DNA from: a virus
Direction: 5' to 3' (one strand)
DNA: 64,000 nucleotides
IMG/VR virus record: IMGVR_UViG_3300032180_000001
Span: 96,001 to 160,000 of that record
The notes beneath the pieces are model-generated. The model ran no database searches. It saw nothing but the letters and a program-made list of their open reading frames with translations, and was not told the DNA's origin. Both the position numbers and the translations under genes were made by a program. The number at the start of each line of letters is the position of its first letter. The first letter of the stretch is position 1. This document shows positions 12,942 through 30,317 of the stretch, one piece after another.

Positions 12942-12949
12942 ATAAAACC

Positions 12950-13186: not shown

Positions 13187-13517
13187 TCCTGGCCGGAAAG
13201 CGATGGCGCAACGAACCGGTGCCTGGTAAATTTCTTGCGTCGAGCCCCCGCACCTCCGGTTCCCGAAGCCTCGCTAGGCAGTGGAACGGGAGGAATCATG
13301 GTTCAGGCGGTACCAGAAGGTCGTGAAAGCGGGTACGGATCGCACGTCAGAGAAGCCGCGGAGACAAGGGCAGGGCGGCCCTGCCGGCTAGGGATGAGGC
13401 CGGCACCTTCCTGATCGGGATCCCTGGTTGCGTGCCCTCCTACTCTGTTATACTCTAAGCGTAGATAGAAACGAAGGAAGCAGAGTCACGGCCGACCGCT
13501 ACACGGGGAGTAACCAG

Positions 13518-14162
13518 ATGAGCGCAAATGTCGACGGAGGTGGTAAAAAATTTACCTGCTCGCGCTGCCATCGAGACGATCTAACGGAAGACGACTTCCC
13601 GATCGACTTGCGTCGAACATCAGGTCGATACCCCTGGTGCAAGCCTTGCAAGGCTGCATACATGCGAGAGAAATATCCTGAACGATACTCTGATGAGCAT
13701 CCAGGCCCACCTCTGTCTCCTGTCTGCACAGGATGCGGTGGACCACGGGGGGCTAAGCGTGCCCGTTGCAATGAATGTGAAGCAAAATACCAACGAGAAT
13801 ACCGCCATGGTGTAGTAATTAAGGAGTCGCCACTGACACTTGAACAACGAACTGAAAGACGTAAACAGAGTCAACGAGAGTCAAAAAGGCGCACAGAACT
13901 TCGACGCTACGGAACAACCCCAGAAGAATGGGATCGAGTACTTGTAGCTCAAGGAAATTGTTGCGCTATCTGTCGTACGAATACGCCTACAGGCGCTGGA
14001 GCTAAATACGGGCACTGGCATACAGATCACGACCACGCAACAGGAAAACTGCGCGGACTACTATGTTCATCATGCAATCTTCTCCTTGGACATGCTGAAG
14101 ATAATCCCGCACGACTGCGAGCAGCAGCAAATTACCTAGAAAAATACCTAGAAAAGGATTAA
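13518..14162 (+). CDS. Endonuclease VII-family protein with N-terminal Zn fingers
   Basis: QGNCCAIC...HTDHDHATGKLRGLLCSSCNLLLGHAEDNPARLRAAANYLE. Confidence 0.88.
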   Translation: MSANVDGGGKKFTCSRCHRDDLTEDDFPIDLRRTSGRYPWCKPCKAAYMREKYPERYSDEHPGPPLSPVCTGCGGPRGAKRARCNECEAKYQREYRHGVVIKESPLTLEQRTERRKQSQRESKRRTELRRYGTTPEEWDRVLVAQGNCCAICRTNTPTGAGAKYGHWHTDHDHATGKLRGLLCSSCNLLLGHAEDNPARLRAAANYLEKYLEKD

Positions 14163-14165
14163 ATT

Positions 14166-15236
14166 ATGCCTGCTGGTGAAATTCAAGAAATGTTCAGTGT
14201 CCGAGAGACGCCGTGGCACCGTCAGGGTCATGTTCTCGACGACTACCCGCAGACCTTCGAGGAGGCCCGCAAGCTTGCCGGGCTCGACTGGGATCCGATT
14301 GCTGTCCCCGTCTACCAGGGGCTGGACAAGGACAGGCTTCGTGAACGGATCGTTGAGGCCCTTAGAGAGGAGAGGCCGCTTGAGCAAGTCGATGCCCTTC
14401 TCGCAGCCTGCGATCAGTCACTCATCACCGACAAGGAGTTCCGACGCATCGCCCGCAGCGACGACGTGCCCAAGTCGCTCTCCTATCAGCGCGACAGTTA
14501 CAACATCATCCCGAACAGCGTCTTCGGCGAGATCATCGACTCGATCACCGGCGCCGCGCCAGGCAAGATCCGGCTGGAAACAGGTGGCTGCCTGTCCGGG
14601 GGCCGCCAGGTCTGGATACTCGCCCGCCTCGACGAGCCCATCGAGTTCAAGGGCGACAAGTCGCTGACCTTCCCGCACCTGGGTATCACCAGTCGTAACG
14701 ACGGCAAGGCATCCTGCGCCGCCCGACTCACTACCGTCAGAATCGTCTGCTGGAACACCTTCAGCGCTGCGGAAGCCGAGGGTGAGCGCACCGGCGCGGT
14801 GTACAGCTTCAGCCATCGCGGTAACTGGCGTGACCGGATCGGCGAGGCTCGCGAGGCACTGATGTTCGCCCGGCGTGAAGCTGCCGAATACGTCGAGACG
14901 ATGACCGAACTGCTCGGCATCAAGGTCACCTCGGTCCAGGAGCAGCTGTTCCTGCAGGCGTTCATCCCGTCACCGCCCGAAGGCGTCATCTCCGACCGGG
15001 TAGCAAAGAACATCGACGAGGCACGGGCAGCCGTTGCGGGCTTCCTGAACAGCCCGACGGTGGAAGGTGCCGGCGTCCGCGGTACTGCCTACGGTCTGGT
15101 GCAGGCGGCAGGTGAGTACCTCGATCACGCACGCCGGGCGAACAGTTGGGAAACGAAGATGGGGAGGTCGATTTTGCGGCAAGAACCCTTGAAAGCAAAG
15201 GCTGCTCAGCTGGCCCGGCAGGCGGCGCTGGCGTGA
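14166..15236 (+). CDS. DUF932 (TIGR03299-like) phage/plasmid protein
   Basis: MFSVRETPWHRQG...ARKLAGLDW...ETGGCLSGGRQVWILAR...RIVCWNT...GTAYGLVQAAGEYLDH. Confidence 0.85.
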   Translation: MPAGEIQEMFSVRETPWHRQGHVLDDYPQTFEEARKLAGLDWDPIAVPVYQGLDKDRLRERIVEALREERPLEQVDALLAACDQSLITDKEFRRIARSDDVPKSLSYQRDSYNIIPNSVFGEIIDSITGAAPGKIRLETGGCLSGGRQVWILARLDEPIEFKGDKSLTFPHLGITSRNDGKASCAARLTTVRIVCWNTFSAAEAEGERTGAVYSFSHRGNWRDRIGEAREALMFARREAAEYVETMTELLGIKVTSVQEQLFLQAFIPSPPEGVISDRVAKNIDEARAAVAGFLNSPTVEGAGVRGTAYGLVQAAGEYLDHARRANSWETKMGRSILRQEPLKAKAAQLARQAALA

Positions 15237-15430
15237 CGAACACACCCGGTCCGATCCTGCTCGAAACCTCTTCCGCTGACGTTAGCCTCAGTCCGGTCAC
15301 CCCAGAATCGTGCGATCGCTGCGGCCCAGCCGTCCGGGCGCTCTGGCAGGTCTCGGCCGGAACAGGAGTGCTGACCTTCTGCGGGTCGTGCTACCGGAGG
15401 TTCCGGAAGATAGCAGCGAGCCGGGAATGA
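15233..15430 (+). CDS. Small CxxC Zn-binding hypothetical protein
   Basis: CDRCG...FCGSC; GTGA and ATGA overlaps with its neighbours. Confidence 0.55.
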   Translation: MTNTPGPILLETSSADVSLSPVTPESCDRCGPAVRALWQVSAGTGVLTFCGSCYRRFRKIAASRE

Positions 15431-15521
15431 TCTGTTTCGTCCCTCGGTTACACCACCTCGTACCTCAGCACACCCCAGGCGAGACTCATCAGGAGTCGCC
15501 GAGAGAGCCGAGGAGAACAAG

Positions 15522-15995
15522 GTGCTATCAGCACTCGCAGCAATTTTCATCACAGTCCAGCCCGGAGACACGCTGTCCGGCATCGCCGTCAGTCACGGTG
15601 TGTCACTTGCCGCGGTGGAGGCGGCCAACCCCCAGATCGAGAACTTCAACCTGATCTACGCGGGCAACCGGGTCGCCATTCCGAAAGGGGGCAGCTACCA
15701 GGCGCAGCCTCAGCCGACCTACCGCCAGCCATCGCAGGCCCCGTCAAACAGTTACGGCGTTGCGGGCACAGGCGGCGGTTCCCTGTCGGATGTCCCGGGC
15801 GTCCCGTCGTCGTTCGCAGCATGCGTGGCCCTGCGAGAGTCGGGTGACGGGTCGGGCAGCTCGAACATCTACGGGATCATCCCTGGGAGCGGATACAGCG
15901 TCGCAGGTGACTCGCTAGCGCAGCAGAAGGCGGTGTTCGCCCAGATCTATCAGAGGTATGGAGTGACAGCCTGGCAGCCCTGGGACGGATGTTAG
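15522..15995 (+). CDS. LysM plus minimal lysozyme-like (Rpf/transglycosylase-like) protein
   Basis: LysM: TVQPGDTLSGIAVSHGVSLAAVEAANPQIENFNLIYAGNRVAIP. C-terminal CVALRESG...NIYG...QQKAVF...YGVTAWQPWDGC with catalytic Glu and a flanking Cys pair. Confidence 0.8.
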   Translation: MLSALAAIFITVQPGDTLSGIAVSHGVSLAAVEAANPQIENFNLIYAGNRVAIPKGGSYQAQPQPTYRQPSQAPSNSYGVAGTGGGSLSDVPGVPSSFAACVALRESGDGSGSSNIYGIIPGSGYSVAGDSLAQQKAVFAQIYQRYGVTAWQPWDGC

Positions 15996-16059
15996 AGTGG
16001 CCGAAAAGGCACTCCATCCGTTAACCTGTACCTGATGGGTCGTGGCTGACCCTGGGCAG

Positions 16060-16098
16060 AAGAACCACCGCTCCCCGTGTCAGGAGCGGTGGTTCTTT
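16060..16098 (+). terminator. Rho-independent terminator
   Basis: aagaaccaccgctcc-ccgtgtca-ggagcggtggttctt followed by t. Confidence 0.75.
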
Positions 16099-16183
16099 CA
16101 CGCTCGGCCCTCCGGATGGGGTATTATATGTGTAGCGGGTTTAGAGTGAACAACTAGTAAAGAGAAGGGGACGGGAAAGTAGC

Positions 16184-16432
16184 GTGCTGATAAAGCAGAA
16201 ATCTCATCCGATGCCCGATGAGGTCCTGCTGGTCGCCCGGATGGAAGCGGAAGACCGTCGCAAGACCCGGGAAGAGTACTATCACTGGCAGGAGCGGGAT
16301 CTCAGGATCCGGCTGGCGATCTACACCGACATCGTGACCGGAAAGCGCTTTCCTGCCGAAGGTCGCACCTACTACAAGGTCCGCATCGCGATGATCCGCA
16401 ACGAGCTGAAGGCGCGGAAGGCGGGGCCATGA
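16184..16432 (+). CDS. Hypothetical protein
   Basis: 82 aa ORF with purine-rich RBS; meets the minus-strand operon tail to tail. Confidence 0.55.
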   Translation: MLIKQKSHPMPDEVLLVARMEAEDRRKTREEYYHWQERDLRIRLAIYTDIVTGKRFPAEGRTYYKVRIAMIRNELKARKAGP

Positions 16433-16819
16433 CTAGTGCGGATACAGAGCCTTGCAGTCCCGCGGAGCGTCCTTGGCGTTCACGATCGCGCGCAGCTCGG
16501 TTACCTCCGCTATTATCTTCGGCGTCAGCTTTGCTCCCTTCGGCGTCGCATCAGAGAAAAATGCGCCCCAGAGAAGTTTATCTTGCGCTCGTGCACTATT
16601 ATTTTCCACGCACTGACTGTACTGAACGACCGCTTCACCGCTGTTCCCGTGAATCTGCCCGATCGTCAGGAAAACAACGATGATCGACAGTGCTACATCC
16701 AGGCAGATGGAAACAGCCAGCATCAGCGCGGTCTTCTTGCTGGCTTTGCCTCGCTGCAACTGCCCGATCAGCCTCATCGCCGTGCTGATCAGGGCCTCAT
16801 CATCCTCTTCCGGCTTCAT
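16433..16819 (-). CDS. Single-TM membrane protein with external Cys pair (paralog A)
   Basis: TAMRLIGQLQRGKASKKTALMLAVSICLDVALSIIVVFL...QC...DC. Confidence 0.7.
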   Translation of the reverse strand: MKPEEDDEALISTAMRLIGQLQRGKASKKTALMLAVSICLDVALSIIVVFLTIGQIHGNSGEAVVQYSQCVENNSARAQDKLLWGAFFSDATPKGAKLTPKIIAEVTELRAIVNAKDAPRDCKALYPH

Positions 16820-17214
16820 CTCGTCCCCTGTCCGTATACTTGCTGGCAGTCCACAGGAATATAAAGAGCTTCAACTACTTTCAGGAAAGATTTACCGAGC
16901 GCGTTACTATGAAAATCCTCAGTATTCAGTATCCACAGACTAACAAACTCCTGCTGAGTAGCATTGCTCTCATTGCAAATGGTCAGCTCCTGTGAGCGAA
17001 GTCGGTTTTCCTGATCAACAAGTCCGGAATTACTGTGCGACAACCCGACCCCGAGAAGTATCACCACAATGGAAAGCGTGACATCCAGAAAAATAGAAAT
17101 AGCGAGCAACAGCACAGTTTTCTTGCTGGCCTTCGTCCGCTGAAGTTTCTTTATCAACTCCATCGCAGTGCCGATCAGAACATCATCGGCGGGTTCCTCA
17201 GTTCTGTCCGGCAT
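16816..17214 (-). CDS. Single-TM membrane protein with external Cys pair (paralog B)
   Basis: TAMELIKKLQRTKASKKTVLLLAISIFLDVTLSIVVILL...IC...DC; RBS aggag before ATG 17214. Confidence 0.7.
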   Translation of the reverse strand: MPDRTEEPADDVLIGTAMELIKKLQRTKASKKTVLLLAISIFLDVTLSIVVILLGVGLSHSNSGLVDQENRLRSQELTICNESNATQQEFVSLWILNTEDFHSNALGKSFLKVVEALYIPVDCQQVYGQGTR

Positions 17215-17419
17215 CCGATCGCTCCTGCTCGATAACGCGCAGCATAATAGCCGCTGCCATCTTATCCCGATTCGGTTTCTTCGCATCCTCGCGAATCGAG
17301 ACCAGCAAGCTAATAAGCCGCAGCATATCTCCGTTCGTCAGTCGTCCTTCCTGATACCCTTCGAGCAGGCGATCAAGATCAGCCTTATCCGAATTAAGCT
17401 CGTCCACGATCACCGCCAT
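17198..17419 (-). CDS. Small helical protein, LDxLLE..AAAIMLR family, copy 3
   Basis: KADLDRLLEGYQEG...DKMAAAIMLRVIEQE; TAATG overlap with the upstream gene. Confidence 0.65.
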   Translation of the reverse strand: MAVIVDELNSDKADLDRLLEGYQEGRLTNGDMLRLISLLVSIREDAKKPNRDKMAAAIMLRVIEQERSDAGQN

Positions 17420-18264
17420 TATTTCCGCCCCAGCCGCAGGTACCACATCCGTGCGGACATCTCCCTCTCCGGAGCGAGAAAGGCTAGCGCCCAGGTGCCG
17501 AACCAGATAAACCAGCCCGCATCCCCAACGGACGGCTGACTCCAGCTCCAGTGCAGGATGGCATACGCGAACAGCGAATCAGAGGCCAGTAGCCCCAGTG
17601 CGCCGATGCTAATCAGCCAGAAGGAATTCGACACCCTCGTTCCGTGACGAAAATGCCGCATGGCCAGAACGATGGTGACCAGCGCGCAGATCTGCAGCAG
17701 CAGTAGAATGTCCGCCGTCGGATAGGCGATGGATACTACCTTGGCGATGGTCGAGGCGCCACTGGCATGCGCGTTAGGACTGATGAGGAGAGGCCAGGAG
17801 AACAGCCCGAAAGTAAGACCTGTTACCGCCACTGCCACCGCTGCGGCACGCCGGTTCACGTGGATGTTGCCGCCGCTGGCCAGCATCACCAGTCCGGCCA
17901 CGAAAAATACGTAGCTGCTCAGTTCCAGCGCGTCGGACAGCCCTGGATAAGGCACGCTGTCCGTGATCTTCGTGTAAGCGAGAGCCGTTCCAGCGCCCAG
18001 CAAGTTCAACGCCATCCCGACGAGCAGTAGCAGCCAGGCGAACTTCCGCCGACTGGGATTAAGCACGACGCCGAGGATCATCCCCGCTACGGCCAGTCCC
18101 AGAACCGGCATGAACCCCACCGTGATCCAGCCAGGCACTTTCGGCTGAATGTAGTAGGCGACGATGACCGCGATGTAGCCGAGAAGGAACAGCGCCTGCG
18201 CCTGGCTCAGGAAACCGGGCCAGGGCGCAGCTGGCTTTCCGGTGTCCGATGCTGAAATAGCCAT
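17419..18264 (-). CDS. Multi-pass membrane sensor-like protein with no cytoplasmic output domain
   Basis: About 8 hydrophobic helices with PYPGLSDALEL, SIAYPTADILLL, LLASDSLFAY and DAGWFIWF motifs, resembling the N-terminal TM input region of actinobacterial GGDEF/EAL proteins. Confidence 0.7.
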   Translation of the reverse strand: MAISASDTGKPAAPWPGFLSQAQALFLLGYIAVIVAYYIQPKVPGWITVGFMPVLGLAVAGMILGVVLNPSRRKFAWLLLLVGMALNLLGAGTALAYTKITDSVPYPGLSDALELSSYVFFVAGLVMLASGGNIHVNRRAAAVAVAVTGLTFGLFSWPLLISPNAHASGASTIAKVVSIAYPTADILLLLQICALVTIVLAMRHFRHGTRVSNSFWLISIGALGLLASDSLFAYAILHWSWSQPSVGDAGWFIWFGTWALAFLAPEREMSARMWYLRLGRK

Positions 18265-18530
18265 TACGATTCTCCATTCGCTTCCGGAACTACTCTTCTG
18301 GTGATCTGAACAACACGGCAGGGTGCCCCGCGGCAGGCTCTGGCGAGCTGTTTCGCCTCATCAAGCGTCAGCGGCCCCGTCAGTGAGAACCCGAGAAACG
18401 ATCTCACCTCGAACCCGGCTCCTCGCCACGCACCGAGAAGAAACCACTCGACATCATATTCTTCAGCCCAGCCAGCATCCGGCTCGATCTCGCGATCATC
18501 TGAACTGTCGTCTTCTCTCCATGCCTCCAT
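18264..18530 (-). CDS. Hypothetical protein
   Basis: 88 aa, translationally coupled within the operon. Confidence 0.5.
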   Translation of the reverse strand: MEAWREDDSSDDREIEPDAGWAEEYDVEWFLLGAWRGAGFEVRSFLGFSLTGPLTLDEAKQLARACRGAPCRVVQITRRVVPEANGES

Positions 18531-18555
18531 TGCGCACCTCCCCGCAGTTCTCTGC

Positions 18556-18771
18556 CTAGCTCAGCCATTTTTCCGTCTTCGCCTGCTCGATGAAACGTAG
18601 CATGATCGCCGCCGCAACCCTGTCCCCAGCGATAAAATCTTCTGCCACGCCGTTCATGATCCGCAGGAGCAGTCCTTTCAGCTCTTCCGTCTCCACAGGT
18701 ATCAGCTCGTCCCGGCCGAATTTCTCTAGCAAAGTATCCAGGCGCAGACGACTCGACGGGATAGCTGTCAC
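18556..18771 (-). CDS. Small helical protein, LDxLLE..AAAIMLR family, copy 2
   Basis: RLRLDTLLEKFG...DRVAAAIMLRFIEQ. Confidence 0.65.
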   Translation of the reverse strand: MTAIPSSRLRLDTLLEKFGRDELIPVETEELKGLLLRIMNGVAEDFIAGDRVAAAIMLRFIEQAKTEKWLS

Positions 18772-19268
18772 GACGAACCTGACTCGTCCTGGAAAAACTC
18801 TCTGCGCCTGACGGCAGCAATAACATACAACCCTCGCTCTGTCGGAATAGGGGCCAGTGTTATATCGACAGGAAGTTCCTGACCGCTCTTCGTCAGTAGC
18901 GAAAGAGCGAGGCCCGTGCCCATCGGGCGAATTACCGGGTTAGTCAGGTAAGCTTTCCGATGCGCCGCGTGCCCAGACCTCAGAACACTAGGTACCAGCA
19001 TATCTATCGACTCTCCGCGCAGTTGTGATCGGTAATAACCAGTCAGCAGCTCCATCTGACGGTTAACCAGGAAAATTTTTCCGGTCTCTCCCTCGACAAT
19101 GGTAATAGCATCCGGAAAATCATCGAATATCTTGATAGTCAGATCAGCGACGAAAACTATGTCAGTGCGAGGAATCTCCGGACGCAGCAGGAGATGCAGT
19201 ACAGGCACAACATACGTTTCAACCGAATTATCCGCCAATTCACTGCCTCCCTGTTCACTATTTGTCAT
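18768..19268 (-). CDS. Stand-alone PAS domain protein
   Basis: IFDDFPDAITIVEGETGKIFLVNRQMELLTGYYRSQLRGESIDMLVP...MG.GL.L..TKSGQELPVDITLAP. Confidence 0.9.
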   Translation of the reverse strand: MTNSEQGGSELADNSVETYVVPVLHLLLRPEIPRTDIVFVADLTIKIFDDFPDAITIVEGETGKIFLVNRQMELLTGYYRSQLRGESIDMLVPSVLRSGHAAHRKAYLTNPVIRPMGTGLALSLLTKSGQELPVDITLAPIPTERGLYVIAAVRRREFFQDESGSS

Positions 19269-19720
19269 GGCGAACCTGGCTTACCTGACGGACCATTTCG
19301 AGGCTCCCTGCGCCGAAGCGTAGCGATGACGAACAGGCCGTGCATTGTTGAAACGGGAGCGAGCATGATGTCCACCGGAACCTCCCGCCCGCTCTTCGTC
19401 TGAATCGAAAGATTGAGGTTGGCGCCCATCTGCCGGACCTTAGGATCAACCATGTACCCGGTTCGGTGCTCGAGATGCCGCGGACGGCGCTCTTGCGGCA
19501 CGAGCATGTCCACCGTCTGGTTGCGCAACTCGCTACGGTGATAGCCGGTCAGGAACTCAGCCTGGTCATTGACGAGCCGGATCCGGCCGGTTTCCCCGTG
19601 CACGATGATGATCGCATCCGGTGACTGCTGGAAAATCTGAACAGCCAGGTCGGCGGTGAAGCGGATATCTTCGGCGATCTGACCGATTCCGCGCTCGTCC
19701 TGGTAACTCTCTGTGCTCAC
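19265..19720 (-). CDS. Stand-alone PAS domain protein (paralog)
   Basis: IFQQSPDAIIIVHGETGRIRLVNDQAEFLTGYHRSELRNQTVDMLVP...TKSGREVPVDIMLAP. Confidence 0.9.
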   Translation of the reverse strand: MSTESYQDERGIGQIAEDIRFTADLAVQIFQQSPDAIIIVHGETGRIRLVNDQAEFLTGYHRSELRNQTVDMLVPQERRPRHLEHRTGYMVDPKVRQMGANLNLSIQTKSGREVPVDIMLAPVSTMHGLFVIATLRRREPRNGPSGKPGSP

Positions 19721-20395
19721 TTAAGTCTCGCCTTCTAGTACCCGGAGAATAATAACTGCTGCGATCCGGTTCCCCGTCGGTGCCTCCCGACTGTCCAGAA
19801 TCTCCCGGAGCATATCGGCTAGCGCCGCTTTCTCATTCGACGTAATGATCTGCGCCTGGTACCTTTCTAGCAAATTGTCCAGCTCCGGCGTATGCGGGCT
19901 GTGCAGAATGCGCGCGGCGTCATAGGCGACGTTCTTCCAGAACACGTCGATCTTGGTTTCCAGCACGCCAGTCCGGTCAGCAACCGTGCTCAGCCGGTCA
20001 GTAACTGACTGAAGCGAGGGCACGACCCGCCGGTTGATCTCGTCGACCTTGCCTTCCAGCGCTCCGGTTCGGTCAGAAACGAGATTGAGCTTGTCTGTTG
20101 CCGCAAGGAGTGCCGGAGCGACCCGGCTATTAATGTCGGCGATGTCCCGCTCGTTCTTCTCGATTTTGCTGATAAAGCCCTCTACCGAACTAGCCACTAC
20201 ATCCTTTGCGATGCCCTGTATCTGGGCAACACGATCCTTAGAGCTATCCCTTCTCCGAGAGTACAGAAAAGAGATAACAGCGACAAGAACAGCAGCTATC
20301 GCAGAAAGTATCGTGAGGATCTCGTAAAAAGCTACACCGCCGGACGAAGAAGATGCTGCCGCATCAGCCACCGTCAGTATCAGACCGCCTGCCAC
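19721..20395 (-). CDS. TM plus coiled-coil protein ending in LDxLLE..AAxIxLR domain (copy 1)
   Basis: One TM helix, heptad repeats, then HSPHTPELDNLLERY...NRIAAVIILRVLE. The start at GTG 20395 follows an RBS and the leader hairpin. Confidence 0.7.
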   Translation of the reverse strand: MAGGLILTVADAAASSSSGGVAFYEILTILSAIAAVLVAVISFLYSRRRDSSKDRVAQIQGIAKDVVASSVEGFISKIEKNERDIADINSRVAPALLAATDKLNLVSDRTGALEGKVDEINRRVVPSLQSVTDRLSTVADRTGVLETKIDVFWKNVAYDAARILHSPHTPELDNLLERYQAQIITSNEKAALADMLREILDSREAPTGNRIAAVIILRVLEGET

Positions 20396-20420
20396 GCCCA
20401 GATTCCCTTCGCTCGCAAGG

Positions 20421-20444
20421 GACCGGCTCCAGCAGGCCGCGGTC
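20421..20444 (-). promoter_or_regulatory. Conserved late-leader hairpin copy
   Basis: GACCG-CGG-CC-ugcu-GG-AGC-CGGUC downstream of TACGCT. Confidence 0.7.
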
Positions 20445-20631
20445 ATATACGCTTAGCGTAGCGTACCTGTCTAGTACAGTCTAAGCCTCGCTCGCGGGGG
20501 ATGATCCTTCCGGCGGAACGGTGAAATCGCGGTCACGTACCCAGCCCTGCCGTTCGAGGAGGACGGCCATCTCCTCGCTTACCACCGGCTTCGCGTGCAC
20601 CGGCCCGTCCCGGAAGTCCATGCCTGGCAGT

Positions 20632-21712
20632 TTACAGGTCGTCTAGCGCCCGCAGCAGCTTCCTGGCGTTCGCTTCGAAAGTTCTGTCGGCAACAGCTTC
20701 CCGCGCCTGCTCCGCTATCTTGCCCCGTTCTGCCTCGTGCGTGATATACCAGTGCAGGATTTCGCTGGCATCTTCCGGGTCGGTGAACCGCGGCAGCATG
20801 TGCAGCACTTCGTCTCCTTCCGGGCGCGCGTCCCGAAGGAAGGGCAATCCGATGGCCGCCATCTCTACCTCGCGCGGCCCCATGGCCCAGCCCTGGCCAG
20901 CGTAGGCGTCTTCGGACTCACGCCGGTACAGATTGATCCCCATCTTTGCGTGCCGGTACAGCTCCGCCGTTTCCGTGTTGTCCACACAGGTATCGCGACC
21001 GTGCCCGATATACTTCCGCAGCCTGCTGTCCGGTGCCAGCTCCTCGTCCCAGTAATTGCCGCCAAGCAGCACGTCGAGGTTCCCCAGATCGAGGCGCTCG
21101 AAAAACTCGGCACGGCTCTTGAAGCAGGTTCCGATGAAGGTCAGATCGGCAGCCAGCTCCGGGTTCACCGGCCCGCGCCGAGGGTAGTGCACGTCCGGGC
21201 GGTACGCGTGCGGCATGTACAGCGCCGGGCCAAGTTCCCGGTACGCAGCGATATTAACTGGATCGTTGAGGAGGTTCAGGTCAGCATGCTGAGCCCGGTC
21301 CAGTTGCTCTCCGTCCTGATAAGTAAGGCGATTCTGTATGAAGGATCACTTGCTTCATTTTCCGTAGCTTGAAAAGCTGGAACATGCCCCCGGTAATAAA
21401 GAACCCGGACACGTACAGAATAACGTCAGGCCAGAAAGTCATCGCCGCGTGGGTCAGCCCCTGCATCGACATGACGATGGCGTCCTTTTGACTCTTCACG
21501 GCCTGCTCGACGACAGGAAGCCCCTGTTCGTCCGTCACAATGTTGCCATGCTCATCTGTTTTCGGAAGAAGAGCCTTGGAATAAAACACGAGCCGATCGT
21601 TCAGGTTATACATAAGGACCTCATTGCCCAGCTCGCGCAATGCATCAGCCCATCCGTAGTAAACATCAGCAACCGAGAAGTCCGGGCCGGGGTGACATAT
21701 CAGAATACGCAC
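20632..21712 (-). CDS. CgeB/GT-B-like glycosyltransferase split by a +4 nt discontinuity at a UUA codon (21325-21319)
   Basis: The N-part (MRILICHPGPDFSVADVY...HTESPY) and C-part (QDGEQLDRAQHADLNLLND...DLTFIGTCFKSR...MGPREVEMAAIGLPF) are in different frames, joined at CCT TAC T TAT CAG. Confidence 0.8.
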
Positions 21713-21821
21713 AAAACCACCTCCTCCCGATGACACACTCGAAATTTTATGGTACGATTTATTCGGCTCGGTAGCACCGGTCAGGGGTACTTCCGAGCCT
21801 GATCGCATCGGAGGTGCGACT

Positions 21822-22355
21822 ATGCCTGATCATACACAGGCGGAGCGCTGGCTGCCAGTGCCGGGGTACGAAGGATTCTACGAGATCAGTAATCGCGGTC
21901 AGGTCCGCAGCATCCGCCACATGACGCAGGCCGGATGGCGCGGTGGCAAGCTGCTCTCACCGTTCCTCGATGCCGATGGGTACTTGCGTGTCAACCTCAG
22001 TCGTTATGGTGCTACTCGAAGTGTTACCATCCACACTCTCGTGCTGACAGCATTCGACCGTCCCCCTGCAAGCGGGGAGCAAGGCAGGCACGGACTCGGC
22101 GGGAAAACTGACAACCATCTAGAGAACCTGGAATGGGGAACGCCACAGGAAAACAGTGACGATAAATACAGAGACGGCACGATGGCCTGTGGCGAGAAGC
22201 AGGGAAATTCAAAACTTACCGCTACTGATATAAAATCAATCAGAACTCGTCGTGCTGCCGGGGAGGAAGCAAGTTCACTAGCTCTTAACTTTAAAATAAG
22301 TGAGACACATGTAAACCGAATCGTAAAGCGTGAATCGTGGCGTCACATACCGTAG
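21822..22355 (+). CDS. NUMOD4-HNH endonuclease with C-terminal HTH
   Basis: ERWLPVPGYEGFYEISNRGQVRS...HTLVLTAF...HGLGGKTDNHLENLEWGTPQENSDD. Confidence 0.9.
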   Translation: MPDHTQAERWLPVPGYEGFYEISNRGQVRSIRHMTQAGWRGGKLLSPFLDADGYLRVNLSRYGATRSVTIHTLVLTAFDRPPASGEQGRHGLGGKTDNHLENLEWGTPQENSDDKYRDGTMACGEKQGNSKLTATDIKSIRTRRAAGEEASSLALNFKISETHVNRIVKRESWRHIP

Positions 22356-22365
22356 CTCAGTACAT

Positions 22366-22788
22366 TTAAATCACGCCGCACTGCACACCAATCCTGGCTC
22401 CAAAGAAAGTCACTCCATTAAAAAGCAATCGCCCGTAGCTCTCAATTGCGATAGGCTCAGCGAAATGACAGGCTCCGCCCAAGGTTGGATCAACCATAAT
22501 GGCTTCTGGAATACTACTCGATGTTATATTTTCTCCTATACCGAGAAAACTATCCAGGGCGCGTTGGACAGCCTCGCTAGGCGCTGCATCACTGATCGCA
22601 ATAAGCACCCTTAGATTACAGGTGAACGCCCCGTCCATCGTAGCACCATAGGTAACGTATGGTTGGCCTGGCAAAATCACCGCGACAGGAGGCTGGATCG
22701 AGTCTTTCGCCTCGGCCATAACCCGCAGACCCGTCTTCGCGGCGATCTGATTCGCCAGGGCTGCCCGAACCGCACCAAGATCAGCCAC
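22366..22788 (-). CDS. Tail terminator / tail-completion protein
   Basis: MADLGAVRAALANQI...IQPPVAVILPG...DPTLGG; GTG overlaps the upstream TAG. Confidence 0.65.
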   Translation of the reverse strand: MADLGAVRAALANQIAAKTGLRVMAEAKDSIQPPVAVILPGQPYVTYGATMDGAFTCNLRVLIAISDAAPSEAVQRALDSFLGIGENITSSSIPEAIMVDPTLGGACHFAEPIAIESYGRLLFNGVTFFGARIGVQCGVI

Positions 22789-23246
22789 TAGTTCTCTCCT
22801 CCGCTTGCTTGCTCTCCCGAATGGTGCCGCAGGCGCTCCTCGACGTGCGCGAGATGCCGGGCATGAACGTCCGCAACAAACGCGGCCGTTATCGATCGGG
22901 TACCGGGGTGATCTGGATGATGACGGCGGCACAGGTTATAGGTCATTCCGGTAATGGGATCAGTCAGGGCATGATGTCCTAGCCGCCAGCACCAGCGCTG
23001 ATGACAATTGTGTTTCTTATAGATGGCAATTAGACCACCGATAATTGTCACTTCCGCCAGATCGCTGCCGAAACCCGAGAAAAACCCATAGTAGGGACCT
23101 GGCTCGTTAATGGTACCGGTATGAAACTGAAGCCAGTAGCCCAGGCCGAAATGAGTCACGTTCCACTGCCAGATTCCGTACGCTAGTACGCCTAGCAAGG
23201 CAACCGGAACAAGATACCAGAAAGTTTTCACACAAGTATGTCCCAT
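22788..23246 (-). CDS. Membrane protein with His/Cys-rich C-terminus
   Basis: Two hydrophobic segments; HNCHQRWCWRLGHH...LCRRHHP. Confidence 0.6.
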   Translation of the reverse strand: MGHTCVKTFWYLVPVALLGVLAYGIWQWNVTHFGLGYWLQFHTGTINEPGPYYGFFSGFGSDLAEVTIIGGLIAIYKKHNCHQRWCWRLGHHALTDPITGMTYNLCRRHHPDHPGTRSITAAFVADVHARHLAHVEERLRHHSGEQASGGEN

Positions 23247-23851
23247 TCCAGCGCCCAGGCTTCTTCCCGCTGGCCTGTGAACGGCATTAGCCTGCCCCAG
23301 GACACCATCCCCGCCGGATGTGTCAGGACCGCATGCCCGTCGTGCGGCAGGGAAATACCCATAACCAGGCCGGGTACCGGAGCATCCTCCGCAACCCGGA
23401 AGAAATCTCGCAGTCGCACCCGGCAGCCGCCACTCCTTGCCGCTTCCAGCGCGGCCTCGATCGACGTACCGCTGTCTACGGTCCCGCCGGCTAGGCGGTG
23501 CAAGGCCAGGATCTCATCGTCGGCTAGGACAATGCCGGTCACGGTCGCGAGATGGTAGGCGATCGCCAGGGCAGAGCAGGTTGGATAGACGTCGTTGAAG
23601 CCAGGCACTTTCGACATCACATCGGATGCCATGGCAGCTCGCTTAGCCGCCGTGTTCGCGGTAACCAGCGGGGAGACACTCGCCTTGTACAACGCCGCCT
23701 GGTGCTTCTGCTGCGCGGTCTGCTTCGCCTGTAGTGCGGCAAACTGCTTCTGTCCCGTCGGCAGCAGCGTGCGGGTTACCCACGACCGGGATCTCCGCGG
23801 GGTGTAGACCCGCTGCCACGGCCCGCCGCCCCACCCTTTTCCCCGGGCCAT
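23228..23851 (-). CDS. Basic N-terminus plus papain/C39-like peptidase-like domain; possibly extended upstream by a UUA hop
   Basis: YPTCSALA...DGHAVL...VSWG has Cys/His spacing typical of papain-like folds (inference). Confidence 0.5.
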   Translation of the reverse strand: MARGKGWGGGPWQRVYTPRRSRSWVTRTLLPTGQKQFAALQAKQTAQQKHQAALYKASVSPLVTANTAAKRAAMASDVMSKVPGFNDVYPTCSALAIAYHLATVTGIVLADDEILALHRLAGGTVDSGTSIEAALEAARSGGCRVRLRDFFRVAEDAPVPGLVMGISLPHDGHAVLTHPAGMVSWGRLMPFTGQREEAWALEWDILV

Positions 23852-24001
23852 AACCGGCCCTTACCGCTGGTGCGAGGACCCGCTACCCGGAGCATGACCA
23901 CTGTGCCCGACGGAGTGAGGATCTGCGGGACAATACCCCAGCAGTTGGTCGTCGTCAGCACAGGTCTCGTCCTGTCCACACCAGAGCCTCCTGTTCGAAG
24001 T

Positions 24002-24033
24002 CCCGGCTCCGGCTGTGACAAGCTGGCCGCAGG
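24002..24033 (-). promoter_or_regulatory. Conserved late-leader hairpin copy
   Basis: CCUG-CGG-CC-loop-GG-AGC-CGGG downstream of TACACT. Confidence 0.7.
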
Positions 24034-24041
24034 CTACAGTA

Positions 24042-24854
24042 TCAGTGTAGACGTTCGAGCAGCTCGTCGCGGTAGTTCGTCACCACAAAGTCAAGCAGAG
24101 CCCCTCGGTAGTTCGCCACCACAAAGCTCAGCAGATCATCGACGCGCTGCCCCTTCCAGGACACCCATAGTTCTAGATTGTCAGGCCGATTATCAGTCTT
24201 GATGCCATTCTTGTGATGAACCTCCTCTTCTCGAAGTAGCGGACGCCCTAGCTGTTCCTCCATGACTAGACGGTGTTCGAATCGATCCCTGCCATTAACC
24301 TTAATTTTTCGATAACCATTTTCTGTAACCCAGCCGCGATCATCGTGATAGTAGGCCGGGCCATCCATCGGGCTGCCTGCCTTGCGTCGTCGCTCATGCC
24401 GAGGGCAGAGACCGCTTGCCGAACTTATCTTGGGCTGGTCGCATCCTTCCCAGACGCACTCCGGAACGGGTTCGTCTTTCCGGCGATGCGGTCGGATTGG
24501 CGCGTTCATATCTGAATGCAGAATGTACTTTCGATGATAATGCACCGAGCAGTATCCACGTGAGCTATGCGGACGATCACAGCCAGGGTGACTACACAGC
24601 TTCTTTTCAGCAAACGGTACGTCCATGTTCCGGCCATTACGAACCCGCTGATAGTGTGCCGAACAGTATCCGCCCGCATGATGTGGCCGATCACAACCAG
24701 GATGATTGCAGTTTCGTTGACTGCCCCTGAACGGTATGTTCATGTCCCGACCCGTGAGCTGACGCTGGTAGTGCGCGTTGCACAGACCTGTTTTCTTATA
24801 AGAACGAGGCCGGTCGCAGCCAGGCCACGTGCAGGTAGACTGATCTTGTGTCAT
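24042..24854 (-). CDS. HNH endonuclease with four CxxxGCxRP..GYC..HY repeats; probably leaderless
   Basis: FEHRLVMEEQLGRPLLREEEVHHKNGIKTDNRPDNLELW; TGtTAAAAT 6 nt before the ATG. Confidence 0.9.
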   Translation of the reverse strand: MTQDQSTCTWPGCDRPRSYKKTGLCNAHYQRQLTGRDMNIPFRGSQRNCNHPGCDRPHHAGGYCSAHYQRVRNGRNMDVPFAEKKLCSHPGCDRPHSSRGYCSVHYHRKYILHSDMNAPIRPHRRKDEPVPECVWEGCDQPKISSASGLCPRHERRRKAGSPMDGPAYYHDDRGWVTENGYRKIKVNGRDRFEHRLVMEEQLGRPLLREEEVHHKNGIKTDNRPDNLELWVSWKGQRVDDLLSFVVANYRGALLDFVVTNYRDELLERLH

Positions 24855-24903
24855 ACCCTTATTTTAACACACCGACCAGAATTTCAAAAACCAACAAATT
24901 CGA

Positions 24904-25845
24904 TCACACGCCGACTTTCAGGCGCTGATCGGTATACGGGCGAAGCATTTCGATGATCCACGGATTGGCCTGAATTCTCACGACACCAAGGTCTCCTGCC
25001 CCAGCAATGCCAAAAGGCGCATCCTTGCGCTTAAACCATTCGGTGGCCAGCTCCAGGCAGGCCTGCGATACTGTCGGCGGAACAGATGGCCATCCCCAGG
25101 TGCCGGTAATCTGCACTCGGTCCATGTGCGCGAACGGGTAAATATACGGGAACCACTTACCGTTCTGCAGTACCTGTACCTTCTTGAACGGGCGCTGGAC
25201 TCCGAGAGCGTTCAGGTTGTAGCGATCTTTGCCAAACTTGAGCTGGTAGTCCACGTTCTGCGTCCACGCCTCAGCGAACACGCCATTCCCGGTCTGATCG
25301 ACGTTAAGAGAGGTGATGCTGACCAGAGGGTCAATCGTCAGTTCCCGGATGTCGTAGGGTACGAACGTCCGCGTCTCGGTAATCCGGTAAAAATGGGTGG
25401 CGCAATGCTCATTGATCCACGTACTCGCCGCCTGGATGGCCTGCTGCATGGCGAAATCGTCGGAACCGTCTTCAACGCTGATCCGGTCTCGCAGCTCCTC
25501 CAGTCCGCAGTACCAGTTGCCGAGTTGGGGCGGGAACACGCGCCAGGTGCCTGGTTGAACGTCGGAAACAGCTCCGGTACCGATCCAGATGTAGCTCCAC
25601 AGCCCGTCGATTCCGGTGATGGCCGGGGAACAGGGCACGATAAGCTCATAATGCCCAACCAGTGGCTTGGTGATGTCTGCGGGAGAGGCACCGTTGTACG
25701 TATGAACAACCTGATTTCCTGATGGATCAGTGACAACACAGGAAACAGTTGTCGGATCGGTGTCGACGAGTGGGTCGCCCGCCTGAAACTCGTTGCTGAG
25801 CAGGGCTATCTCGTTCTGGTTGTCATAGTAGATAGTGCTGGTCAT
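24904..25845 (-). CDS. Head-to-tail adaptor (gp6-like) with an extra N-terminal Ig-like domain
   Basis: YCGLEELRDRI...AIQAASTWINEHCATHF...TGTWGWPSVPPTVSQACLELATEWFKRKDAPFG. Confidence 0.8.
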   Translation of the reverse strand: MTSTIYYDNQNEIALLSNEFQAGDPLVDTDPTTVSCVVTDPSGNQVVHTYNGASPADITKPLVGHYELIVPCSPAITGIDGLWSYIWIGTGAVSDVQPGTWRVFPPQLGNWYCGLEELRDRISVEDGSDDFAMQQAIQAASTWINEHCATHFYRITETRTFVPYDIRELTIDPLVSITSLNVDQTGNGVFAEAWTQNVDYQLKFGKDRYNLNALGVQRPFKKVQVLQNGKWFPYIYPFAHMDRVQITGTWGWPSVPPTVSQACLELATEWFKRKDAPFGIAGAGDLGVVRIQANPWIIEMLRPYTDQRLKVGV

Positions 25846-25865
25846 CAGGGCCTCCTGCGCGAGAA

Positions 25866-25890
25866 CCCTGGCTCCATGACGGCCGCAGCG
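25866..25890 (-). promoter_or_regulatory. Conserved late-leader hairpin copy
   Basis: CUG-CGG-CC-gucau-GG-AGC-CAG downstream of TATCAT. Confidence 0.7.
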
Positions 25891-25900
25891 GTACGTACCC

Positions 25901-28351
25901 TCATGATACTCCGCTTAGGCTTCGTGCCGGGGAGGTGACAGTACTCGCGCCTGGCGCACCACCCGACACCGCCCCGTTCCGGCTCGACGCGGACTGGTTA
26001 ACCGCACTCTGCGCAGGTACCAGAGCCAGTATGCTGTCCTGGCTTACCATCGGCTGTCCGATCGACGTCGCCGTGCTGTGCCCCTTAATGGTGCTGATCT
26101 CTAGGGTTCCCGGACGCAGTACGACAGACAGTGCCTCGGCAGCCTGCGCATGTGCCGCCAGCAGTAGCGAAGCAGCGGTTATCCCTGTTCCTGTCGCTAC
26201 GCCGGCAGTTAGGGCAACCTCGGTTGAAGGTGACAGCACCGATCCGGTCCCGCTGGCAAGAGAAGGAGTCACCGCAGGAGCCGCAGGCAAGACGGTTCCG
26301 GTTCCAGTTGCAAGACCAGCAACGGTAACGAAGTCGGCCGAAGCGTCCGGAGCAGTACTCACCCCGTTGGCCACTCCGGCAGTGATAGCTGTCGCGATCC
26401 CCGCATCCAGAGCGAGTCCAGACCCGAGAGCCCCCGGATCACCGCAGAATCCCGCTTCAGATGCCAATGCAACCCCGATGCCGACAGCGAGTACGGCGTC
26501 AGTAGCGATCGCGGCAGCTACAGGCAATACGGTTCCGGTTCCTACAGCGACCCCGAGCGTGGTCTGACTATCAATCGCAGAAGCCGGGGTGGCACCTGTC
26601 CCGCTGGCAAGTCCCGCACCCGCCTGATTATCAGCATCCGACGCTAGGCTAGTTCCGCTTCCGGTTGCGGTATCAGCTACAAGCGCGAAAGAAACAACAG
26701 AAGCCTGACCCGTACCGGTAACAAGTCCAGCGGCAGTAAGCGCAGCAGTTACAGACGATACAGTCCCGATTCCGGTAGCGGTCCCCGCTGTAATCGCAAT
26801 CACGGCTGGAGTCGTAACAATACTTGTTCCTGGCGCAAAACCAGCATTCCCAACGTTATCGGCATCAGGTGCCTGGCTCGCACCCGTTCCAGTCGCGAAT
26901 CCAGGGGCTAGGCCAATTCCGGTAATACCAAGGCCGTAGAAACCTTCGCCGTAAGAACCTCCACCGTAAATGATCTCCGTCAGGGCGCTCGCAAGATCGG
27001 CAAAACCTTGACTGCCCGCACTAGCTGACGGGACACCCCCGGTTCCGCTGGCAGATCCCGCTGCAAGGCCGATTCCTGGTGCTTGCACAGTGACGAGGCC
27101 GTCAGCAAGCCCCGTGCCTGCAGCTACCGCGGATCCGGATGGCTGCGCAATGGCGAGACCGGTCGCAGATCCTGCCGCTAGGCTGATTCCCGGTGCTAGT
27201 GCTAGGCCCGTGCCCGATGCGAGTCCTACGAAGCCCTGATTATCGGCATCCGGTGCCTGCGCAGCTCCGGTTCCAATGGCAAGCCCCGCAGCTACGAATA
27301 CCGGAATCTGAGCTGTTGGTGCCTGTGCCGTACCGGTGGCGGATGCGAAGCCGGGGGTCAGTTCTGCTCCAGGGGCTCCTGCCGTGCCCGTGCCTGAAAC
27401 GAGTCCTGCGCCCCCCTGGTTGTCGGCATCAGAGGTCTGCGCTATTCCGGTTCCGGTGGCGAGACCTGGTGTCAGTCCGACCGCAAGCCCGTCAACAACG
27501 GGAGCCCCCGTACCGATCCAGGTTTGATCTGAAGCAGCAAGGTTATCCATCCAAAACGTGTTCGTGCTGTTCGATACGCTGGAGCCGATAAGGGCGAAGT
27601 TAAGTGCGGAAACGTTGTTGTTAGCTGCGTTGTTGACTGAATCCTGCAGAGTACCAGAAGCGTCGTAAAGTCGAGCGAAAGTCTGCGCATTTCCTGCCCC
27701 GGAAACAAACATGCCTTCAATTCGGTACCAGGTGTTCAGTGACATGGCGGTACCGGTACCGTTAACATTGCCGCCAGGTCCTATGGCAGAAATATGCCCG
27801 GTGCCTGTGATACCCAGCCCTAGTGCACCGGCTCCTGCACGGAATACGTACCCGATTGAATAGTTTGTCAGGTAGATATAAGCCCGCAGATAGAGGATAG
27901 CCGAGTTATACGGAAGCGGGTTCCAGCCGGTATAGCTGAGGCTCGCGGACGTGACAAACTTATAAGCCAGGGAGCCAGCGAAAACCTGAGAGTTGTCAAA
28001 GGTAATTGTTCCCACGCCACCTTGGGTAAGCGCATCACCTGACACTCCGCCGGAGTTCCCCGCTGTTACGGCCGTAGTGTTCGAGCCGCCTTCAGCTGTG
28101 TTTTTCAGCGCTAGAAAGCGAGCGCAGGCTACTCCGGTGCCTGTGGCGAGTCCGGCAGCCAGTCCTATTCCGGAAGACTGTACAGCACCGGTTCCGTGGG
28201 CGAGTCCTGCAGTGACGAATAGAGATGCCTCGCTATACAAAACAGGTGAGGCAACCGTCGTGCAGGCCGGCCATGGGAACTGCGGGACGACAATCTTACT
28301 AGTGCCGGGAACAAGTGCGACACCGCCGTCGAGCTGGATGACTACTGCCAT
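25901..28351 (-). CDS. Large Gly/Ala/Thr-repeat virion protein with a lectin-like globular domain
   Basis: GLATGTG and DADNQ repeats; shares a block of about 780 bp with 31650-35072. Confidence 0.75.
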   Translation of the reverse strand: MAVVIQLDGGVALVPGTSKIVVPQFPWPACTTVASPVLYSEASLFVTAGLAHGTGAVQSSGIGLAAGLATGTGVACARFLALKNTAEGGSNTTAVTAGNSGGVSGDALTQGGVGTITFDNSQVFAGSLAYKFVTSASLSYTGWNPLPYNSAILYLRAYIYLTNYSIGYVFRAGAGALGLGITGTGHISAIGPGGNVNGTGTAMSLNTWYRIEGMFVSGAGNAQTFARLYDASGTLQDSVNNAANNNVSALNFALIGSSVSNSTNTFWMDNLAASDQTWIGTGAPVVDGLAVGLTPGLATGTGIAQTSDADNQGGAGLVSGTGTAGAPGAELTPGFASATGTAQAPTAQIPVFVAAGLAIGTGAAQAPDADNQGFVGLASGTGLALAPGISLAAGSATGLAIAQPSGSAVAAGTGLADGLVTVQAPGIGLAAGSASGTGGVPSASAGSQGFADLASALTEIIYGGGSYGEGFYGLGITGIGLAPGFATGTGASQAPDADNVGNAGFAPGTSIVTTPAVIAITAGTATGIGTVSSVTAALTAAGLVTGTGQASVVSFALVADTATGSGTSLASDADNQAGAGLASGTGATPASAIDSQTTLGVAVGTGTVLPVAAAIATDAVLAVGIGVALASEAGFCGDPGALGSGLALDAGIATAITAGVANGVSTAPDASADFVTVAGLATGTGTVLPAAPAVTPSLASGTGSVLSPSTEVALTAGVATGTGITAASLLLAAHAQAAEALSVVLRPGTLEISTIKGHSTATSIGQPMVSQDSILALVPAQSAVNQSASSRNGAVSGGAPGASTVTSPARSLSGVS

Positions 28352-28391
28352 AACACTACCAGCATGTGATCACGCACTTATAATCACAACC

Positions 28392-28859
28392 CTACTTTCT
28401 AGGTGTACCGTTATAAACTCTCCCCTTATGCAAACCACATGTGCAGCCTGGAAGACAAGGTTGCTTCCTTGGAGCATTATGCTTTCCACAATCACAGCCA
28501 GGAAGACAAGGAGGGGACCCAGGAAGACCATGTTTTGCGCATTCGCAGCCCGGAAAACATGGTGGAGATGGTCTAAGATTTCCAACTGTTCCATCATAAA
28601 CTCCGTGACAGCTATAGCACAACGGCCTGTAGTGCCAAACATCTGAACCATCTAGTCCGTGAATTTGAGACCATTGCTTAGCAAAGTCGTTACAAAACGT
28701 GCATCCATAACCAGTAGCTTTGCCTCTTACTTTCTTAACAAGAGAATGGAGGTTAAAGTAGTCTAGTTCACCATCGTATGCCCTACCTTTGTGTCTACCG
28801 CACTCGCACCCTGGAAGGCATTTTTTACCGGGGTGATTACTTCGATTTCCTTTAGTCAT
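28392..28859 (-). CDS. HNH-like (His-Me finger) protein with CxPGCxCxxH repeats and its own leaderless promoter
   Basis: CTFC...AKQWS...YRPLCYSCHGVYD; TTGAAT-17-TATAAT (28894-28866) 6 nt before ATG 28859. Confidence 0.7.
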   Translation of the reverse strand: MTKGNRSNHPGKKCLPGCECGRHKGRAYDGELDYFNLHSLVKKVRGKATGYGCTFCNDFAKQWSQIHGLDGSDVWHYRPLCYSCHGVYDGTVGNLRPSPPCFPGCECAKHGLPGSPPCLPGCDCGKHNAPRKQPCLPGCTCGLHKGRVYNGTPRK

Positions 28860-28865
28860 AGTAGT

Positions 28866-28894
28866 ATTATACAACATTCCTTGAATAAATTCAA
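28866..28894 (-). promoter_or_regulatory. Near-consensus housekeeping-sigma promoter (leaderless)
   Basis: TTGAAT-N17-TATAAT-N6-ATG. Confidence 0.75.
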
Positions 28895-28907
28895 CCATTG
28901 AAATTCC

Positions 28908-29867: not shown

Positions 29868-29868
29868 G

Positions 29869-30309: not shown

Positions 30310-30317
30310 CTCGGCTC

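Follow-up and report, generated by a model that had tools for sequence, protein, structure and literature searches.

The stretch analysed here (the window) comprises 64,000 nucleotides (nt), bases 96001-160000, of the viral record IMGVR_UViG_3300032180_000001, a 184,980-bp IMG/VR entry from soil with a completeness rating of 99%. The GC content of the genome is 59%, and a search for tRNA genes in it found none. On the minus strand of the window lies the gene of a putative CgeB-like glycosyltransferase (GT), whose reading frame is broken by four extra bases at an in-frame TTA codon. The interrupted gene is laid out as follows.

21323-21712, minus strand: upstream part of the GT gene, from the start codon GTG (21712-21710) to the proposed take-off codon TAC (21325-21323); residues 1-130, ending ...KQVILHTESPY
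21320-21322, minus strand: in-frame TTA (UUA in the mRNA), the proposed slow A-site codon that opens the gap
21319-21321, minus strand: proposed landing codon TAT for tyrosine, overlapping the TTA, with only T21322 skipped as gap
20632-21318, minus strand: downstream part of the GT gene in the +1 frame, from the resume codon CAG (21318-21316) to the stop codon TAA (20634-20632), with the PF13524 domain
21281-21283, minus strand: frame-0 stop codon TGA, which ends a truncated product of 143 amino acids (aa), last residues ESPYLSGRRATGPGSAC, when the TTA is read as leucine

A strong ribosome-binding site (GGGAGGAGG, ~21719-21727) precedes the GTG start. In the upstream frame the break reads GAA TCG CCT TAC(21325-21323) TTA(21322-21320) TCA GGA, and in the +1 frame it reads T(21322) TAT(21321-19) CAG(21318-16) GAC GGA GAG, continuing into the open reading frame (ORF) at 20632-21216. 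A sequence-only reading of this stretch had placed a split at TAC-TTA-T inside an ESPYQ motif, with TTA as the A-site codon, an end of straight reading at 21281 and the CAG at 21318 in the frame of the 20632-21216 ORF; the DNA is exactly as described. Skipping TTAT gives a protein of 358 aa (...HTESPYQDGEQL...) whose junction is the same as in all homologs checked, and reading T followed by TAT gives one of 359 aa with a doubled tyrosine (YY).

The joined protein matches Pfam family PF13524 (Glyco_trans_1_2, CgeB-like) with an E-value of 7e-14 and 52 bits, against a gathering cut-off of 25. Its 2,754 homologs are about 350 aa long, the best being 79% identical over 100% of the length. By Pfam score and full-length homology, the split gene is assigned to the predicted CgeB-like glycosyltransferases, and a PHROGs search with the GT returned no family. 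Alignment with 27 full-length homologs (57-79% identity) showed E127, S128, P129 and Y130 to be invariant and Q131 nearly so. None of the 27 carries an extra residue between Y and Q, and the ungapped pattern [TS]ESPY[QE] is present in 111 of the 120 homologs listed. The product of a +4 move, as had been claimed from the sequence, thus restores an intact and invariant motif.

The nearest DNA relatives read TCGCCGTACCAG and TCGCCCTATCAG at the position of the window's TCGCCTTACTTATCAG, so that the window GT has exactly four extra bases. These bases can also be read as a perfect CTTA-CTTA tandem duplication, the alternative that had been raised alongside recoding. The heptamer TACTTAT is common enough in the window (5 found, 2.5 expected), and the evidence therefore rests on its place and frame. 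Exact records of the 143-aa frameshifted N-terminal fragment and of a 194-aa C-terminal fragment were found in JGI, ENA (a 222,744-bp contig) and Logan assemblies. The three assemblies may share one sample; they exclude an assembler artefact and leave room for a sample-specific allele. When ~40% of the contigs of one sequencing run, probably that of the source sample, were compared with window 12000-31999, none of them covered 20671-26673. Translation of the two halves as separate proteins was rejected, the first ATG of the downstream frame (21216) lying 35 conserved residues past the break and having no ribosome-binding site.

The portal gene of the same genome (Pfam PF04860), also on the minus strand, holds two further elements.

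62028-62037, minus strand: sister element of the GT site, with take-off TAT (62037-35), TTA (62034-32), landing TAC (62033-31) and resume codon TTC (62030-28)
62053-62064, minus strand: second portal element, in frame, CGA TTA ATT CGT, with extra residues RLI and synonymous arginine codons flanking the TTA-led insert

In the portal's own frame there is no start codon before TTG 61934, which sits within the conserved ALYSCVRLLAESLASLP block. A leader ORF in frame 0, starting at ATG 62133 behind a good ribosome-binding site, encodes MGFLDRILADRSVEQRVIGGVPWRLIRPWDSPY and then reaches the TTA. The N-terminus of portal homologs reads MGLIERIQADR.EQRVIGGVPWRPWDSPY[WFM]KFSQGGPVHP, and skipping from TAT to TAC gives ...RPWDSPYFKFSQGGP, which matches the consensus length exactly. 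The site had been called the mirror image of the GT site, and its layout agrees: CCC TAT TTA C TTC, with frame 0 for the leader and frame +1 for the portal body. The portal, an essential gene, appears to depend on the same kind of hop, TAT-T-TAC. [D/E]-S-P-Y precedes both tyrosine sites of the genome, which may hint at a role of the nascent peptide or of the E-site codon. No exact-product record of the portal leader ORF was found in other assemblies.

Further observations concern the same gene. The in-frame CGA TTA ATT CGT element (window 62045-62075) forms the loop of a CCATGG/CCATGG hairpin in the VPW and RPW codons (fold z-score -2.24), and its position is the main insertion hot spot among related portals. 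At 60078-61202 (minus strand) the portal contains an intein-like insert of 375 aa (residues 310-684, DSLTYN|C...FTGN|TVEMSTLQ) where homologs read uninterrupted DSLTYSTVEQSTLQ; the insert has no Pfam match.

The same kind of interruption was found in related GT genes. A survey of 80 GT loci by tblastn for frame breaks gave L016-019, L060 and L080. The first four are one phage in four samples and carry CGA[TTATC]CGG together with a +1 break within a run of T; L060 carries CTT[TT]AAC, and L080 carries AAT[TTAC]GAC without a matched landing codon. In-frame TTA codons are scarce in these genes (9 in 21,041 codons of 60 distinct GT coding sequences) and most of them lead inserts, for example CCT[TTA]CCC, CTT[TTACGA]CTT and GAT[TTAAAGGGC]CGC. 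A direct DNA search with the pattern GAR TCN CCN TAY TTAY CAR GA recovered the window's GT site in 5 IMG/VR loci and 11 metagenome contigs (~9 distinct), and at least 12 other, diverged GT genes are interrupted at the same codon, GAA TCG CCT TAT TTA C CAG. These bearers read ...[LM].T ESPY [TTAC] QD.EQL, with diverged flanking protein sequence. The GT is otherwise whole in L172, L183, L205 and L224, and other bearers have additional elements at other GT hot spots, such as AAT[TT]AAT and CGT[TTAAAAA]CGG. The six bearers tested do not group together on a maximum-likelihood GT tree, where well-supported branches require five or more gains or losses. The proline codon before the tyrosine is CCT in 12 of the 13 bearers as against 7 of 56 intact alleles, a bias that fits either a 4-nt duplication on a CCT-TAY background or the lateral spread of a short segment.

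Two kinds of break without TTA were also seen among the GT relatives. The ESPY-TTAC bearer L174 has a deletion of an invariant Pro-Asp after TFW (~3995-4005) that changes the frame; the near-identical L183 does not have it, and the deletion may be either a contig-specific lesion or an error. L016-L019 (~3030-3040), L211 and L247 have +1 or -1 breaks in the T run GAT TTT (C) TCC at GT codons 11-13, which are either U-run slippage or homopolymer errors; the L016-019 break is present in all four samples.

Portal genes gave a fuller picture. The first 60 codons of 80 related portal loci from IMG/VR were tested for read-through, blind to TTA; 67 read through and 13 were frame-broken, L158 (two compensating breaks) and L163 being also broken, and all breaks fall within codons 20-36. 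Almost every one has a common build, in which a codon X ends the conserved sequence and is followed by an in-frame TTA, a short gap and, immediately ahead of the point where conservation returns, a synonymous codon X'. Gaps of 4-7 nt include CGA[TTAT]CGC, CGA[TTAA]CGC, CGA[TTAAAAT]CGT, CGA[TTAATTT]CGA and TCT[TTAG]TCC, and further ones are TCT[TTAGGTAA]TCC, AAT[TT]AAT, CCT[TTACG]CCT, GTT[TTAGA]GTT and TTT[TT]TTT. The window's own portal site, TAT[T]TAC, recurs in L156 (64% portal identity) and L158. In each broken portal, a skip from X to X' restores GGVPWRPWDSPY.KF exactly. Within the N-termini of the 67 read-through portals, in-frame TTAs occur in inserts only, mostly between synonymous codons (CGA[TTA]CGC, GTT[TTA]GTC, CGA[TTATCT]CGC and the window's CGA[TTAATT]CGT at 62064-62053). 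A plain +1 shift is ruled out for the many gaps whose +1 frame contains TAA or TAG.

Taken across genes, the elements follow a recognizable grammar. The breaks were located by tblastn or by frame logic, both blind to TTA, and nearly all of them open with an in-frame TTA after the last conserved codon. In a hand tally the landing codon is synonymous with the take-off codon in ~22 of ~31 distinct elements (for instance CGA/CGC, TCT/TCC, CCT/CCT, AAT/AAT and GTT/GTC), and in 5 more it matches two of three bases; many pairs combine a take-off codon that has T or A in third position with a landing codon that has C or G there. The TTA-led inserts range from 2 to 11 nt. Two broader statistics gave nothing of use. 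The background is 40% when any synonymous codon no more than 9 nt from a TTA is accepted, and this generic landing-codon statistic was dropped as uninformative. A genome-wide coding-potential scan for TTA frame switches was likewise uninformative, with 9 candidates as against 8-24 for control codons and the new ones lying inside longer ORFs. A separate recurrence is that of the hexamer TTAGGC (Leu-Gly), inserted in frame after GAT without a matched landing codon in L060 and L206 (GT) and in L101 and L102 (portal); TTAGG opens the gaps of L091/L092, and TTAGGTAA is the gap of L105.

TTA is by far the rarest sense codon of the genome (rough gene set, 53,216 codons). Downstream of the first possible starts it occurs 19 times in frame, compared with 697 and 358 occurrences in the two remaining frames, and no other comparable codon shows a comparable frame bias, which points to selection acting at the level of decoding. 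Selection on the GT protein was examined over the 228 codons downstream of the break, where dN/dS is 0.16 against L083 and 0.15 against L084, with 0.29 for the intact pair L083-L084; the terminal branch of the window GT is short (0.081, median 0.13).

Some of the few in-frame TTAs stand at gene ends. At genome positions 15723, 85522, 162040 and 174708, four genes have TTA as their last codon, followed by TGA in three of them and by TAG in one; they make up a large share of the in-frame TTAs, and in the three TTA TGA cases the ATG could start an overlapping next gene. At the C-terminus of the terminase large subunit (window 63388-63390, minus strand) the sequence reads ...SSVR TTA GCG... and runs for 11 further codons; all terminase homologs end just after the residue aligned to that arginine, where skipping the first T of the TTA gives TAG.

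The host of the phage was approached by homology. DNA searches of isolated phages with the GT and portal genes gave no match, nor did a search of isolated phages with the GT protein. The portal protein matched isolated phages at no more than 30% identity, the nearest being Mycobacterium cluster J phages (30%), and the sole match in prokaryote genomes was a distant, prophage-like one in Rarobacter (31%). An actinobacterial host is plausible, and no host is assignable from these matches.

What is shown is the DNA at the break and its repeated occurrence in relatives, the way the elements are built, the near-absence of in-frame TTA and purifying selection downstream; together these carry the interpretation that the four extra bases are probably a minimal UUA-triggered translational bypass (hop) element and not a dead end. 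Once a ribosome had translated the GT mRNA to ...E-S-P-Y, its P site would hold peptidyl-tRNA-Tyr paired with UAC and its A site UUA, a codon almost fully avoided by the phage and presumably read slowly by the host, which may be a high-GC actinobacterium. While the ribosome is stalled, the peptidyl-tRNA would leave UAC and re-pair with the synonymous UAU four bases downstream, and decoding would resume at CAG to give the full 358-aa enzyme with its invariant ESPYQ; the predicted junction peptide is QVILHTESPYQDGEQLDR. Where UUA is instead read as leucine, the ribosome would reach a stop 13 codons later and release the 143-aa fragment; without recoding only QVILHTESPYLSGR would be made. The enzyme yield would then fall as the supply of Leu-tRNA(UAA) rises, since reading UUA as leucine ends early. 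The GT element would belong to a large class of TTA-led inserts of 2-11 nt, which occupy a small number of hot spots in the GT, the portal and further genes of an uncultured soil-phage clade, often beside free-standing HNH genes. The sequence-only reading had favoured such programmed recoding from tyrosine to tyrosine, and comparison lends it support through the restored motif, the recurrence of both the GT and the portal site and the synonymous landing codons.

Several points weigh against the hop. The stall, the hop itself, its efficiency and any regulatory role are inferred from comparison of DNA, and the scarcity of tRNA-Leu(UAA) in the host is presumed, the actinobacterial links being distant ones. 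No stem-loop was found at the GT site (folds against shuffles, z = +0.96 and +0.15) and no Shine-Dalgarno-like stimulator, with no GGAGG within 15 nt upstream; at portal site B, too, RNA structure was no better than in shuffles. A tandem duplication of CTTA is the simplest kind of mutation, and the GT is an accessory gene whose loss could be tolerable. The TAC-to-TAT orientation occurs only in the window allele, the 12 other bearers being TAT-to-TAC, and the allele may be recent and inefficient. In the closest relatives of the GT (79% and 74% identity) the element is absent, and L174 has a non-TTA deletion of invariant residues. Finally, dS is near saturation, so that the dN/dS values are also compatible with a very recent break.

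The main rival explanation draws on the same facts, holding that a recent CTTA duplication inactivated an accessory GT and that no useful full-length protein is made. It is favoured by the perfect repeat, by the absence of the element from the closest relatives, by the orientation found once among 13 bearers and by L174, which shows that a GT of this clade can carry a damaging deletion. We nevertheless regard a dead gene as unlikely. A random frameshift would rarely yield both the rarest codon, TTA, and a synonymous landing codon at a site used by at least 12 other lineages. The gene has no second lesion, its downstream part shows a dN/dS of 0.15-0.16 on a short branch, and the essential portal gene of the same genome is built likewise.

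Less probable again is a +1 frameshift without a hop, in which Tyr-tRNA would be accepted on the +1-frame UAU to give ESPYYQDGEQ, with QVILHTESPYYQDGEQLDR as the junction peptide. Past the skipped T, the +1 frame offers a sense codon read by a common tRNA, the outcome is indistinguishable by sequence from that of a +4 hop, and L080 (AAT TTAC GAC), with no matched landing codon, would fit. Yet an extra residue within ESPYQ is tolerated by no homolog checked, most sister elements either contain a stop in the +1 frame or span 2, 5, 7, 8, 10 or 11 nt, gap lengths that such a shift is unable to bridge, and mass spectrometry of the phiHau3 product showed bypass. Two related mechanisms were rejected. 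In a classical programmed +1 frameshift of the prfB or Ty1 type, UAC shifted by +1 becomes ACU, which is unable to pair with tRNA-Tyr, and quadruplet decoding is unable to read the sister gaps of 2 to 11 nt.

Phase variation at the DNA level, with the two CTTA units slipping in replication and part of the phage population carrying an intact GT, has the tandem repeat structure in its favour and is very improbable: two repeat units slip rarely, neither the 12 other bearers (TAT TTAC) nor the portal site has a tandem repeat, and the same allele is present in three assemblies. A sequencing or assembly artefact, conceivable in a metagenome assembly, is the least credible of all, given identical frameshifted products in the JGI, ENA and Logan assemblies, the rarity of 4-nt insertions as short-read errors and the presence of the same element in many samples and studies.

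Few recoding events are as rare as translational bypassing, whose textbook case is gene 60 of phage T4. A UUA-triggered form has been proposed for the terminase of phage phiHau3, which has two gaps of 10 nt, and for the terminases of two prophages, where the gaps measure 7 nt (Smith et al., 2013; PMC10732093). Such elements were later found in 3 of 100 terminase genes; the junction peptide was detected by mass spectrometry in Escherichia coli with UAA replacing UUA, and the full-length product was obtained in Streptomyces coelicolor (Antonov et al., 2023; PMC10732093). For phiHau3, a stem-loop on the 5' side and a Shine-Dalgarno-like stimulator within the gene were proposed and are unproven (PMC10732093).

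The GT site resembles the phiHau3, StrepC.1 and S. catenulae prophage terminases in having an in-frame UUA right after the last conserved codon (in the GT the alignment ends at Y130), a short, apparently non-coding block that shifts the frame where homologs leave no room for extra residues, and a landing codon before the resume codon (TAC, TAT, then CAG). It shares with them the great rarity of UUA in the genome and the setting of an actinophage-like genome. It differs in the gene, a CgeB-like GT (and a portal) as against a terminase; in the distance, a +4 move with a landing codon that overlaps the UUA as against +10 or +7; in that no 5' stem-loop or internal Shine-Dalgarno was found at the GT site; and in that one site recurs in many lineages here, as against 3 of 100 terminases. 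The idea of UUA-triggered bypass is thus already published (PMC10732093), and what would be new is its extension to two further gene families and the shortest hop.

Likenesses to other systems are looser. Gene 60 of T4 and its neighbour mobA share with the present sites the matched take-off and landing codons, a slow A-site codon after take-off, an adjacent free-standing homing endonuclease and a patchy distribution; gene 60 differs in its 50-nt gap, UAG stop trigger, take-off hairpin and nascent-peptide signal. The GT site would have a 1-nt gap and the sense codon UUA as trigger, with no hairpin found, and does not conform to the T4 type in gap or hairpin. Hungry-codon frameshifts and short hops in E. 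coli, reportedly described by Weiss in 1987 and by Gallant and Lindsley, and +1 frameshifting of the Ty3 type are alike in that a scarce A-site aminoacyl-tRNA lets the P-site tRNA re-pair nearby or an out-of-frame tRNA enter. Those cases are laboratory ones, of low level or with a slippery P site, whereas natural genes, recurrence and an apparent dependence of the essential portal characterize the present one. The byp elements of Magnusiomyces capitatus mitochondria, said to have been described by Lang and colleagues in 2014, likewise consist of many short inserts distributed among several genes, with take-off and landing codons that match and with signs of mobility; they differ in being 27-55 nt long, GC-rich, structured and mitochondrial, as against 2-11 nt and TTA-led here.

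Both the GT and the portal gene have an endonuclease gene as a divergent neighbour.

21822-22355, plus strand: free-standing NUMOD4/HNH homing-endonuclease gene, immediately upstream of the GT gene (Pfam NUMOD4, 5e-17; phrog_1492, HNH endonuclease, 8e-41)
62175-62867, plus strand: free-standing HNH endonuclease gene, immediately upstream of the portal gene (phrog_374, HNH endonuclease, 7e-61)

The HNH gene at 21822-22355 is an insertion relative to the nearest relatives; in L084, L001 and L174 nothing separates the GT from the next gene upstream. TTA elements are present in each of the four GTs whose immediate upstream neighbour is an HNH gene (this window, L006, L041 and L060) and in 7 of the 8 portal loci with a homolog of the portal HNH gene upstream, as against 19 of the 72 others (Fisher p ~0.001, the loci not being independent). 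Many bearers of TTA elements have no HNH gene nearby, and Pfam and PHROGs searches of the ORFs that precede the portal in relatives with TTA elements revealed no further endonucleases. Bonocora and colleagues reportedly described T4 gene 60 together with a mobA homing-endonuclease cassette in 2011, and the parallel is a lead, not a result. It is possible, though we hold it only tentatively, that the TTA-led hop elements are mobile marks of HNH homing endonucleases: the insert would lie in the target site of the nuclease and shield the genome that carries it, spread to other phages by co-conversion, be tolerated by way of the UUA hop and tie protein synthesis to tRNA-Leu(UAA). Spread by co-conversion would explain both the patchy tree and the shared TCG CCT TAT TTAC context. 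On the other side of the GT block, just downstream (18768-19720, minus strand), lie two adjacent genes for PAS-domain proteins of 166 and 151 aa; sensor domains are unusual in a phage structural region.

The UUA-triggered form of bypassing had rested on three terminase genes and partial experiments. The same logic now appears in an uncultured soil phage of 185 kb, in both its GT and its portal gene, and recurs dozens of times in its relatives, in ~30 builds, of which the minimal +4 version would make an easy reporter test. If the interpretation is right, gene callers systematically mis-annotate such phage genes as split genes or pseudogenes, the rules for take-off and landing would be readable from natural variation, and the link to homing endonucleases and to host tRNA supply would become testable. 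Should the elements indeed be marks of homing endonucleases, synthesis of the portal, GT, terminase and tail proteins would depend on host tRNA-Leu(UAA), and the phage would have a built-in sensor of host physiology.

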